In this document: positions 58,543 to 61,688 of the stretch, one piece after another
Numbering within the stretch: the stretch's first letter is position 1
Layout: every line of letters begins with the position of its first letter
Origin: Escherichia phage vB_EcoM_JNE01
Length of the DNA stretch: 64,000 bases
Sequence record: OR670491
Strand: one strand, 5' to 3'
Notes under the pieces: generated by a model
Databases searched by the model: none
What the model saw: only the letters and a program-made list of their open reading frames with translations
Told to the model about the DNA's origin: nothing
Program-made: the position numbers and the translations under genes

Positions 58543-58566
58543 TTCGAAAATAAAGAAAAAAAGTTC

Positions 58567-58594
58567 TTGACAAGTTAAAATGATGTGATATAAT
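58567..58594 (+). promoter_or_regulatory. strong sigma70-like promoter P1 (TTGACA-16-TATAAT) with upstream A-tract
   Basis: ttgaca 58567-58572, tataat 58589-58594, A-rich UP-like element upstream. Confidence 0.65.
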
Positions 58595-58658
58595 GAGCAT
58601 CACGAAGTAAGTTTTCAAAATCACATGATGTGAGATTGAAAAAAAAGAAAAAAAGTTG

Positions 58659-58686
58659 TTGACAAGGTTGAACGATGTGATATAAT
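58659..58686 (+). promoter_or_regulatory. strong sigma70-like promoter P2 (TTGACA-16-TATAAT), tandem copy of P1
   Basis: ttgaca 58659-58664, tataat 58681-58686; -10 flanked by inverted repeat GTTGAAC ... GTTCAAC. Confidence 0.65.
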
Positions 58687-58808
58687 GTTCAACATCAAGA
58701 CGACGAAGTGATTGACCTTTTTAAACACACGGATGATTCATGAAGTAACAAAGGAACTGATAAGTTAAAAATACTTTTAACACAGTTCCTTTACTTTTGC
58801 CATCGGAT

Positions 58809-58817
58809 TGGTATAAT
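58809..58817 (+). promoter_or_regulatory. extended -10 element (TGgTATAAT) P3
   Basis: tggtataat about 40 nt upstream of ATG 58856. Confidence 0.4.
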
Positions 58818-58855
58818 AGAAATCTCAAATTTATCCAACTAAAAGGAAACTATAC

Positions 58856-60187
58856 ATGTCTACTCAAAACGCTGATATCCTGAACGTAAAACTGACTCCT
58901 AAGAAAGCTAAAGCAGCAATGGCACTGGCTGACATGATTCAAGACAGCCTGATGATTTGGGGTAGCCCTGGTATCGGTAAATCTGCAATTGCCCGTCAAT
59001 ACGCTGATGAGAACTACCCACTGCGTAAAGACAATCTGGCTAAGATTGAGTTCATGAAGCAGCAAATTGAAGTTGATGTAGAAAATGCTGACCAACTACG
59101 CCGTGAACTGGCAGCGTTCGAAGCTAAACTGATTGACCAAGACACCAACTTCATCGACTTCCGTTTGTCACAGATTGAACCAAGTGACCTACGTGGTATC
59201 CCAGTACCAGAGAAGATTTTCCTTGATATGGATGGTAAGCAACTGATTGAATCTGAACTGGAAACTGCACAAAACTACATCGCTGAAACAGCAGTAGTAT
59301 GGGCTGCACCAAAAGTACTGAAACTAAGCCCTGAATGGAAAGGTGTTATCCTGTTCGACGAAATTAACTCTGCAATGCCTATCGTGCAAGCAGCTTCTTA
59401 TCAGCTAATCCTCGACCGCTGTGTTGGTGAGATGAAGCTACCTAAGAAAGCTCTGATTCTGGCAGCAGGTAACCGTGAAACTGATGGCGGTGTAACCTTC
59501 TCTCTAGCTACACCACTGCGTGACCGTATGACTCACATCGAGATGGTTCCTTATCATCAAGATTGGATTAACGACTACGCAATTGCGAAACGTCTGAACC
59601 CAGCAACTGTTGCGTTCATCAACAACACTGGTGCTAAGTACTTCAACACCCTTAGCCCACAAGATCCTTCTCACAGTGGTGGTACTTCCCCACGTTCATG
59701 GGAAGCAGTAGCACGCTACGAAGACCTGAAGAAAGGTGGTCAGAGTATCGATAAAGAAGTGTTCCGTGCTCTAGTTGCAGGTCGTGTTGGTGAAGGTGTT
59801 GCTACCGAGTACATCGAATATGTAGAAAACGTATCTAAACTACCAGATACCATGTCTATCCTAAACGGTGAGATTAAAGAGATTGACGCTTCGCTAGATA
59901 TTTCTGCGAACTACTTCATCTCTCTGAACCTGGTCTATAAAATTATCGACCTGTACAATGAGAAGCAAGAACAACGTCTGGATGTGGCTGAATGGGGTAA
60001 ACTGTGCAACAACTTCATCATCTTCCTAGACCATAACTTCTCTGCAACTCAAGCAGAACTGGCAGTACTAGCGATTCGTACCATCACTCAGGCACGTGTA
60101 GCGATTTCGACTAAAGATGTACCAGCGTTCACTGACTTCATCAAGAAGTACACTGACCTAGTACGTAAAGCACGCTCCCTAAGCTAA
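58856..60187 (+). CDS. AAA+ ATPase (MoxR/CobS-like)
   Basis: Walker A GSPGIGKS, Walker B ILFDEIN, sensor AAGNRE; ~100 aa insertion between Walker motifs; 443 aa. Confidence 0.75.
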   Translation: MSTQNADILNVKLTPKKAKAAMALADMIQDSLMIWGSPGIGKSAIARQYADENYPLRKDNLAKIEFMKQQIEVDVENADQLRRELAAFEAKLIDQDTNFIDFRLSQIEPSDLRGIPVPEKIFLDMDGKQLIESELETAQNYIAETAVVWAAPKVLKLSPEWKGVILFDEINSAMPIVQAASYQLILDRCVGEMKLPKKALILAAGNRETDGGVTFSLATPLRDRMTHIEMVPYHQDWINDYAIAKRLNPATVAFINNTGAKYFNTLSPQDPSHSGGTSPRSWEAVARYEDLKKGGQSIDKEVFRALVAGRVGEGVATEYIEYVENVSKLPDTMSILNGEIKEIDASLDISANYFISLNLVYKIIDLYNEKQEQRLDVAEWGKLCNNFIIFLDHNFSATQAELAVLAIRTITQARVAISTKDVPAFTDFIKKYTDLVRKARSLS

Positions 60188-60208
60188 TAATTCGAAATAG
60201 TGGTTGAC

Positions 60209-60240
60209 AAGGAGGATACCAAATGGTATCCTTCTTTTAT
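60209..60240 (+). terminator. intrinsic terminator (partial, likely read-through)
   Basis: GGATACC-AAAT-GGTATCC then TTCTTTTAT. Confidence 0.5.
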
Positions 60241-60263
60241 CTTAACTAAACGAGGAATTTAAA

Positions 60264-61688
60264 ATGTCTCAAGAACAAAAATTCAAATTCGAAGAAGTTT
60301 CAGCTTCAGTACAGAAAGAGTGCCAAGACCGTCTTATTCTCGCACGTACATCTTTGATGCTTACTAAACCATTCTTTGGTGTACTGGCATCCCGTCTTCG
60401 TCCAGTACCTAACAACACATGGTGTCGTACTCTGGCAGTAGATGGTAAGCACCTTTTTTATAACGTAGAATTCGTAATGGGTATTCAAGACCCACTCAAG
60501 AAAGACGCATATGAAGCAGCAATGCGTGAAGCTCATCCAGAAATTACTGACGAGCAGTTGAAAGAAATGACCGAAGGCTTGACTGACGAAAACCTGATTG
60601 CAGTTATTTGTCATGAAATTCTTCACTGTGCATACGACCACTTCTTGCGTCGTGGTATGCGTGACCCACAACGTTACAACCGTGCTGCTGACTACGCGAT
60701 TAACCAGATTCTGGTTCGTGAAAAGATTGGTAAAATCCAGAATGGTTGGTTGTATGATCCAAAATATGACGGTATGACCGCAGAAGAGATCTACAACATT
60801 CTTCTAGAAGAAGATGAAAAACAAGAACAACAAGAAGGTGAAGGCGAAGGCCAACCACAACAAGGTGGTAGTGGTCAGGGTGAAGGGCGTTCACGTGGTA
60901 CATTTGGTGACCTTGCTGATGGTAAAGGTAAAGGCACTCCAAAAGGTACTACCATTGACCAACATGACGTTCCACAAGATGGTGATGGCGGTCAGTCTGA
61001 AGAGAAGAAACGTGAATATATGGACGATTTCAAAACCGCAATGATGAACGCGGCTCGTGCAGGTGGTACACCAGCAGAAATCGAACGTATGATCAATAAC
61101 TTCAAAGCACCAAAAATTGACTGGCGTGCAAAACTGCAACGTACTTTGCGTAGCTGGTTGAAATCTGACGCTACTTATCAGAACCCAAACCGTCGTTCAT
61201 GGGGTGCAGGTTTTGGTTCTAACGGTTCATTCTACGGGAACCCAATTTTCCCAGGCATGAAACCAGATGATGATATTGATATCGCAATTGCACTAGATGC
61301 ATCCGGTTCTATCTCTGAAGATATGCTCCGTGACTTCATCAGTGAAGTACTGGGTATCACTAAACAATTCAAACAGTTTAAGATTCGTATCATGACATTT
61401 GATACTCAAGTTTATACTGTAATGGATTACAAAACTGGTGAAGAACGTAAGATTCTTGAATATCCAGTTAAAGGTGGTGGCGGTACTGACTTTGAAGCAG
61501 TGTGGGTTCACATGAAACACGACAACTACAAGCCTAAACAACTTGTAATGTTTACAGATGGTGAGCCGTGGCAGTCATGGGGTGATCCTAACTACTGTAA
61601 GACACTGTTCGTTATTCACAGTAATCCAGAGAAAGTCGCACCATTCGGTGAAACCGTACACTACGAGTACGAAAATAAGAAAAAATAA
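60264..61688 (+). CDS. vWA-domain protein with N-terminal HExxH metallopeptidase-like domain (CobT/DUF2201-like)
   Basis: HEILHCAYDH (HExxH), low-complexity Gly/Gln/Glu linker, C-terminal vWA MIDAS-like DASGSIS; partner of upstream AAA+ ATPase. Confidence 0.7.
   Translation: MSQEQKFKFEEVSASVQKECQDRLILARTSLMLTKPFFGVLASRLRPVPNNTWCRTLAVDGKHLFYNVEFVMGIQDPLKKDAYEAAMREAHPEITDEQLKEMTEGLTDENLIAVICHEILHCAYDHFLRRGMRDPQRYNRAADYAINQILVREKIGKIQNGWLYDPKYDGMTAEEIYNILLEEDEKQEQQEGEGEGQPQQGGSGQGEGRSRGTFGDLADGKGKGTPKGTTIDQHDVPQDGDGGQSEEKKREYMDDFKTAMMNAARAGGTPAEIERMINNFKAPKIDWRAKLQRTLRSWLKSDATYQNPNRRSWGAGFGSNGSFYGNPIFPGMKPDDDIDIAIALDASGSISEDMLRDFISEVLGITKQFKQFKIRIMTFDTQVYTVMDYKTGEERKILEYPVKGGGGTDFEAVWVHMKHDNYKPKQLVMFTDGEPWQSWGDPNYCKTLFVIHSNPEKVAPFGETVHYEYENKKK

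Follow-up and report, generated by a model that had tools for sequence, protein, structure and literature searches.

What would a jumbo coliphage gain from placing genes for an ATP-driven motor and a metallopeptidase-like partner behind two perfect host-type promoters? Such a gene pair lies in Escherichia phage vB_EcoM_JNE01 (sequence record OR670491), of which a stretch of 64,000 nucleotides, here called the window, was analyzed. It comprises two adjacent plus-strand open reading frames (ORFs). ORF A (positions 58856 to 60187; 443 amino acids; homologous to gp24 of phage N4 and corresponding to gene 563 of phage 121Q) encodes a MoxR-class AAA+ ATPase, and ORF B (60264 to 61688; 474 amino acids; homologous to N4 gp25 and corresponding to 121Q gene 564), which starts 76 nt 3′ of ORF A, encodes a protein composed of a zincin domain (DUF2201_N), a disordered linker, and a vWA domain (DUF2201) with a metal ion-dependent adhesion site (MIDAS). 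The answer we favor, to which we give about an even chance of being right, is that the two proteins form a MoxR-vWA remodeling machine directed at a host protein or a nonvirion phage protein, working ahead of replication or in parallel with it, and not a late maturation protease.

A MoxR-class ATPase and its zincin-vWA partner

The ORF A product has the full set of AAA+ motifs, i.e., Walker A (G36 to S43, GSPGIGKS), Walker B (D168-E169), sensor 1, arginine finger, and sensor 2, and residues G36, G39, K42, S43, D168, E169, N206, R224, and R280 are invariant among 54 ATPase sequences. Its Pfam scores are weak (AAA, 22.4 bits; AAA_3 [PF07726], 18.9 with a cutoff of 27; AAA_5 [PF07728], 15.8 with a cutoff of 22). 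Matches to AAA_3 and AAA_5 are present in homologues of ~370 residues that have no insertions, and an acidobacterial homologue clears the AAA_5 cutoff (27.7 versus 22). When the AlphaFold2 (AF2) model of ORF A (predicted local distance difference test score [pLDDT], 87) was compared with the PDB using Foldseek, NorQ chains were the top 12 matches (9qh8 and 9qh4; E, ~3e-7) and CbbQ (6l1q) ranked 16th. As modeled, the fold is closest to the solved MoxR proteins, with predicted beta-hairpin inserts before Walker B and sensor 1 (strands 115 to 124 and 141 to 150, and a short hairpin at ~189 to 194).

Motifs and modeled fold support ORF A as a MoxR-class AAA+ ATPase. The initial annotation of the locus had spoken of a MoxR/CobS type; the first half of that label stands, while the second has to be dropped since there is no CobS/CobT Pfam match and the partner is of zincin type. 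An insertion of ~100 residues had also been described. What the ATPase has, relative to both the ~370-residue relatives and N4 gp24, is two separate insertions summing to ~65 to 70 residues: a helical hairpin at residues ~53 to 98 and ~20 residues in the beta-hairpin region 119 to 140.

ORF B matches DUF2201_N (PF13203, "putative metallopeptidase"; E = 6.6e-36; 124.8 bits; cutoff, 23.2) and then DUF2201 (PF09967, "vWA-like"; E = 1.3e-20; 74.2 bits; cutoff, 26.4), which is the domain order expected of DUF2201 proteins, as well as phrog_1314 (3e-127). The profile searches suggested by the initial annotation placed both ORF B domains above their cutoffs and AAA_5, for ORF A, below. The HExxHxxxxH residues H117, E118, H121, and H126 are invariant in sets of 15 and 52 sequences, including N4 gp25 and gp12 of the rV5-like phage Murica. 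So are, in the 52 relatives and again in these two proteins, the MIDAS residues D345-x-S347-x-S349, T408, and D432, and the MIDAS of ORF B (DxSxS, T, D) is complete within the vWA fold. In the AF2 model (pLDDT, 78), a helical N-terminal domain and a compact vWA domain are joined by a low-complexity, G/E/Q-rich linker that is predicted to be disordered (pLDDT of <50 at residues 197 to 226). Compared with N4 gp25, the jumbo-phage partner has an additional helical insert (~74 to 105) and a longer linker. In fold searches, the C-terminal domain matched vWA folds, among them those of NorD, BchD, and Rea1/midasin (MIDAS domain). The combination of an HExxH domain, a low-complexity linker, and a C-terminal vWA domain with MIDAS was thus correctly recognized at the outset.

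Sequence searches of the PDB, with single proteins or profiles, returned nothing significant for the pair, the sole hint for the HExxH region being a nonsignificant match to the minigluzincin MJ1213 (E = 0.28). PADLOC and NCBIfam gave no useful matches for either protein.

Promoters and codon usage

Two promoter units precede ORF A on the plus strand. P1 (58546 to 58607) and P2 (58638 to 58699) each consist of an A-rich upstream tract, a −35 TTGACA (58567 to 58572 and 58659 to 58664, respectively), and a TG-extended −10 TATAAT (58589 to 58594 and 58681 to 58686). Both (58567 to 58594 and 58659 to 58686) thus read TTGACA-16-TATAAT, agreeing with the sigma-70 consensus at 12 of 12 positions, and they form a 62-nt direct repeat whose copies are 82% identical and 92 bp apart. 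If one mismatch is allowed, the window contains seven such extended-consensus sites, against 0.14 expected. A weaker promoter-like site, P3 (58790 to 58817, plus strand), has the sequence TTTACT-16-TATAAT with a TG extension (10 of 12 consensus positions). These elements agree with the two near-identical consensus promoters and third −10 element of the initial annotation. The statement that the tandem promoters drive the genes is a different matter: the promoters are there, but given the terminator-like leader hairpin downstream of them (see below), that they drive the pair is something we infer.

P1, P2, and the entire intergenic layout are kept in the Asteriusvirus relatives. The −10 of P3 is likewise kept in Asteriusvirus, is degenerate in Klebsiella phage K64-1 and Salmonella phage 7t3, and is absent upstream of the ATPase gene from the Serratia, Yersinia, and Pectobacterium phages. 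In phage SP27, the sequence following P1 has been swapped for a copy of the leader that follows P2, after which P2 comes again; this arrangement suggests that the tandem promoter units recombine with each other.

Codon usage sets the pair apart from the rest of the window. With codon adaptation index (CAI) weights taken from 30 Escherichia coli genes for ribosomal proteins and elongation factors, the partner (0.568) and the ATPase (0.567) ranked first and second among 72 ORFs (mean, 0.38; standard deviation, 0.067), in line with the earlier impression of a codon usage like that of highly expressed genes. CTG accounts for 56% of the leucine codons in the ATPase gene versus 8% in the other ORFs of the window. 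The outlier status of the pair recurs in 121Q and K64-1. Two A-tract consensus sigma-70 promoters, combined with an adaptation to E. coli codons that no other ORF of the window equals, lead us to read the unit as built for very high expression.

In a sheath-like late gene (47383 to 50046), 42 of 60 leucine codons are CTA, a rare codon in E. coli. No tRNA genes lie within the 64-kb window; a CTA-reading tRNA may be encoded elsewhere in the phage genome.

Hairpins in the leader, between the genes, and after them

Between P2 and P3, ahead of the ATPase start codon, lies a terminator- or attenuator-like stem-loop (58750 to 58798, plus strand; arms at 58750 to 58759 and 58783 to 58792, enclosing a further A/T stem). 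After it comes a T-rich tract into which the −35 of P3 falls. The predicted folding energy of the stem-loop is −15.4 kcal/mol. Equivalent hairpins with a T tract were found in eight phages of six genera (predicted, −13 to −18 kcal/mol). Outside Asteriusvirus these are Klebsiella K64-1, Salmonella 7t3, Serratia BF, Yersinia fHe-Yen9-04, and Pectobacterium CBB, in all five of which the hairpin trails a single extended −10 promoter 5′ of the ATPase gene. The stems show compensatory changes, i.e., an exchange of A:U for C:G, a G:C to A:U change in CBB, and a paired deletion in K64-1. These were read from individually folded hairpins, a MAFFT alignment having misregistered the 5′ arms. A scan of positions 58000 to 62200 against Rfam at E ≤ 1 matched no family; the leader hairpin thus does not belong to any catalogued RNA. 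Its conservation across six genera is a regulatory addition of the present analysis. As a further control point, the hairpin could serve for attenuation, processing, or stabilization.

A second terminator-like hairpin separates the two genes (60209 to 60246, plus strand), with a 12-bp stem and, after it, TTTTATCTT. All seven genera examined have a hairpin plus T tract in this place, although the sequences are unrelated. This element, too, is added by the present analysis and may favor the ATPase over its partner. A third one closes the unit (61704 to 61732, plus strand; GGAATGG...CCATTCC and then TTCTTATT), just before the next consensus-like promoter at 61737 to 61764 (plus strand; 11 of 12 positions). 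The positions of the intergenic and closing hairpins are both conserved across genera.

Distribution of the gene pair

The pair is already known as a protein family and as a feature of jumbo phages (PMC7824862; PMC4193335); new here are the regulatory details and the corrected annotations ("HNH endonuclease" and "hypothetical protein"). By tblastn, 716 phage records encode the partner and 820 the ATPase. The host profiles of the two sets match, and the records span N4-like, rV5-like, and RaK2-like phages as well as Atu_ph07, Pseudomonas jumbo phages, and others. Homology to the N4 proteins is evident by BLASTP (ORF A versus gp24, 3e-27; ORF B versus gp25, 4e-31), and the two genes are adjacent in N4 and in seven of seven jumbo-phage genera examined. 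The N4 pair has the same gene order and adjacency and the same HExxH and MIDAS residues. It lies beside a dCTP deaminase gene, and gp24/gp25 belong to the gene core shared by N4-like phages, the Schitoviridae, and are reported as middle genes (PMC4193335). They are transcribed by N4's own RNA polymerase II, whereas the promoters in the window are of sigma-70 consensus. In the rV5-like phage Murica, the ATPase gene is near rIIA. The initial annotation had held that absence or dispensability of the genes in all relatives, or lack of HExxH conservation among homologues, would speak against it; the motif proved to be invariant, and the pair is kept in all RaK2-like genera examined, in N4-like phages as core genes, and in rV5-like phages. 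It is among the few genes common to three otherwise very different groups of virulent phages.

An exhaustive search put the size of the family at 14,908 cluster representatives (E ≤ 0.001), and at least 533 loci in bacterial genomes encode a relative. Of the 78 bacterial loci in which the partner ORF could be recovered, 63 have the ATPase gene upstream on the same strand, and none has it downstream. One recurrent form is an acidobacterial chromosomal cassette, present in Telmatobacter bradus (L041, 4029 to 8329) and ~35 other acidobacterial loci, which encodes in order an AAA_5 ATPase, a 314-residue protein, a DUF2201 protein, a phrog_531 "RNase H"-type protein, and a Sipho_Gp157/Mu Gam-like protein. 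Its flanks are ordinary chromosomal genes, e.g., those for an AcrB efflux pump or a thioredoxin-like protein, with no virion genes. Identity between copies at different loci reaches 97% in some cases, one of them a second chromosomal site in T. bradus (L061). The 314-residue protein matched no Pfam or PHROG family. It was rejected as a candidate third conserved gene, since its profile had no match in the window, in N4 or Murica, or in the remaining jumbo-phage loci.

Proposed mode and timing of action

The nearest mechanistic model is NorQ/NorD, in which one NorD is bound per NorQ hexamer through its docked vWA domain and the NorD linker is twisted and stretched at the expense of ATP, remodeling the client (PMC13036017). 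NorQ is the best structural match of the phage ATPase, and NorD has the same order of N-terminal domain, flexible linker, and C-terminal MIDAS-containing vWA domain as the phage partner, a layout shared with CbbQ/CbbO; the linker between the NorD N-domain and vWA is unresolved in the solved complexes. The phage pair differs in that the partner has a zincin N-domain whose HExxHxxxxH is invariant, the identity is ~13%, and, unlike for NorQ/NorD, no metalloenzyme client is known.

By analogy, the phage ATPase would form a hexameric ring, as its fold and motifs imply, on which the partner would dock via its C-terminal vWA domain. The MIDAS could then capture an acidic residue of the target protein, and ATP hydrolysis would pull or twist the flexible linker as in NorQ/NorD, the movement positioning or activating the N-terminal zinc peptidase so that the bound target would be remodeled and probably cleaved. 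Both remodeling and probable cleavage are suggested by a NorD-like layout whose N-domain is nevertheless a zincin with an invariant catalytic glutamate. The pair would be expressed very highly by unmodified host RNA polymerase and host tRNAs from a unit ending at its own terminator, and the intergenic hairpin probably reduces synthesis of the partner relative to the ATPase, as would fit many ATPase subunits per partner. Action before virion assembly is argued for by the host-type promoters and codons, the separate transcription unit, the middle-gene status of the N4 homologues, and the bacterial gene context. Indirect evidence on timing and target comes from the middle-gene status and dCTP deaminase neighbor in N4, the proximity to rIIA in Murica, and the nuclease- and Gam-like company in acidobacteria. 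With its clear expression signals, the jumbo-phage copy is a convenient starting point in the search for the target, and it would permit a test of MoxR motors as drivers of a tethered protease.

Several observations weigh against an early-acting remodeling machine. The leader hairpin and its T tract lie 3′ of P1 and P2, and in genera without P3 the genes are reached solely through it; transcription may therefore be attenuated or dependent on antitermination, which would weaken the inference of early timing. An antitermination parallel for such a leader hairpin is the pR′-tR′ arrangement of phage lambda. The codon adaptation signal is absent from the homologues in Serratia BF, 7t3, Yersinia, and N4. 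As to catalysis, the N-domain of ORF B was matched to no solved peptidase, the fold searches giving only vWA matches, and a NorD-like vWA "finger" is not evident in the model. Literature searches on N4 gp24/gp25, DUF2201/COG3864, CRISPRi-ART data, and Asteriusvirus promoters and transcriptomes found no functional experiment on any family member, in keeping with the initial annotation, which called the role in a phage unknown. Finally, the pair adjoins structural genes, and the ATPase homologue of phAPEC6, gp265c, was detected by mass spectrometry in purified virions (six peptides; 19% coverage).

The last two observations bear on the rival explanation that survives best, a chaperone and protease that processes structural proteins during virion assembly, which we hold to be a minority possibility, although one to be taken seriously. 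It was put forward by Iyer et al. in 2021 for "group 2.2" jumbo phages, which have a MoxR AAA+ ATPase and a vWA cochaperone with an N-terminal metallopeptidase, and to which the window pair belongs, judging from its architecture and the type of phage. A role in assembling the virion, with processing by proteolysis, was proposed there by analogy with Acidianus two-tailed virus, whose MoxR-vWA pair is needed for tail development (PMC7824862). The location of the genes directly 3′ of the virion structural block, in the window as in 121Q, and the presence of gp265c in phAPEC6 virions are in its favor. The phAPEC6 virion proteome, however, includes thymidylate synthase as well but not the vWA partner, and carryover of abundant proteins is thus possible. 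Moreover, the pair forms a unit of its own, whose sigma-70 consensus promoters and host-type codons are unlike those of the neighboring late genes, the N4 homologues are middle genes in a region of replication and nucleotide metabolism, and the bacterial cassettes with the pair carry no virion genes. The early-type promoters, host-type codons, and own terminators, which Iyer et al. do not discuss, fit assembly timing less well.

A bolder form of the favored reading, which we consider rather unlikely as a whole, is that of a split FtsH-like ATP-dependent metalloprotease, made early and abundantly by virulent N4-like, rV5-like, and RaK2-like phages, that would capture a specific host protein through its MIDAS and cleave it, its dosage being set by a leader attenuator and a partial intergenic terminator at ~6 ATPase subunits per partner. 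Targets could be, for example, a defense, nucleoid, or transcription factor. FtsH, which likewise joins an AAA+ motor to an HExxH zinc peptidase, is a functional analogue, but it does so in a single membrane-anchored chain, with a motor of the classical AAA clade and an M41 protease ring. The phage motor is of MoxR class and its peptidase sits on a separate vWA adaptor; the likeness is drawn on function. MoxR-vWA couples are known as a regulated switch in virus-host conflict from the vWA-MoxR ternary systems of bacterial defense (Kaur et al. 2020, PMC7159879), whose third component is a VMAP, iSTAND, or FtsH (or beta-propeller) protein with effector domains. The window pair is not such a system, as PADLOC gave no match and the neighboring ORFs lack these domains.

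It is improbable, in our judgment, that the pair is instead a nonproteolytic chaperone for cofactor insertion or enzyme maturation (NorQD, CbbQO, or CoxDE type), with the HExxH domain acting as an adaptor or as a module for metal binding. What would be activated is a phage or host metalloenzyme, e.g., in nucleotide metabolism. Among solved structures, those closest to the ATPase are indeed metal-insertion or activase MoxR proteins (PMC13036017), and the gene neighbors include thymidylate synthase here and dCTP deaminase in N4. Yet the HExxH glutamate is invariant across the family of 14,908 representatives, which points to catalysis and not to metal delivery alone, and N4-like, rV5-like, and jumbo phages share no conserved gene next to the pair that would be a candidate client.

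A cobaltochelatase module of CobS/CobT type, as with cyanophage cobS, is very improbable and was rejected. The layout of a MoxR-like AAA+ protein with a vWA partner is the same, and an acidobacterial ATPase homologue has a weak secondary match to a "porphyrin biosynthesis" PHROG (1.5e-9, versus 8.6e-94 for phrog_1297), but neither window protein matches either family in Pfam, NCBIfam, or PHROG, the N terminus of the partner is a DUF2201_N zincin and not of CobT type, and no cobN-like gene was seen nearby. We give next to no credence to ORF B being an HNH endonuclease, for which the RefSeq and phrog_1314 labels alone speak: no HNH family is among its Pfam matches down to E = 0.1, its histidines belong to the HExxHxxxxH of a DUF2201_N zincin-type domain followed by a vWA domain, and the label borne by its homologues is a misannotation.

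Genomic context and other sequence features

The window is from a jumbo coliphage of Asteriusvirus type. Its segment 58400 to 61800 is 99.4% identical to Escherichia phage Turkey5; 121Q, PBECO4, phAPEC6, and other Asteriusvirus jumbo coliphages are ~84 to 86% identical over the same segment. Both genes are annotated as "hypothetical protein" in Turkey5, and in 121Q gene 563 is labeled "ATPase" and gene 564 "HNH endonuclease" with the note "Zn-dependent hydrolase." Upstream of the pair, in the window and in 121Q, is a block of virion structural genes; downstream are two small ORFs, an SLOG/DprA-like gene, and the thymidylate synthase gene.

Most genes of the window are late structural genes on the plus strand. 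The T4-type late promoter core TATAAATA does not occur on the plus strand of the window, where ~7 copies would be expected from base composition. Late promoters are therefore unusable as a contrast for timing, and those of this phage must look different.

A 14-nt inverted repeat (58522 to 58553; 93% complementary, with a 4-nt loop and no T tract) straddles the stop codon of the preceding ORF (58165 to 58542), directly before the A-tract of P1. A second layout of promoter, hairpin, and gene is found at 29407 to 29477, where a perfect extended-consensus promoter (29407 to 29434) is followed by the hairpin GAGAACTTCAATATGAGGTTCTC with a T run, a ribosome-binding site, and the start of an ORF (29478 to 29873); this order may be a recurring design in the phage.

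The 8-bp palindrome CAGTACTG is present 42 times in the 64 kb, the next most common 8-mer palindrome occurring 11 times. AGTACTG has 156 matches on both strands, compared to 8.7 ± 3.3 in shuffled sequences, and AGTACT (the ScaI site) occurs 163 times. The CAGTACTG sites, e.g., at 3507, 5283, 9035, 20387, 36530, 48681, 58185, and 62902, are mostly within ORFs, at about every 1.5 kb and with A/T-rich flanks.

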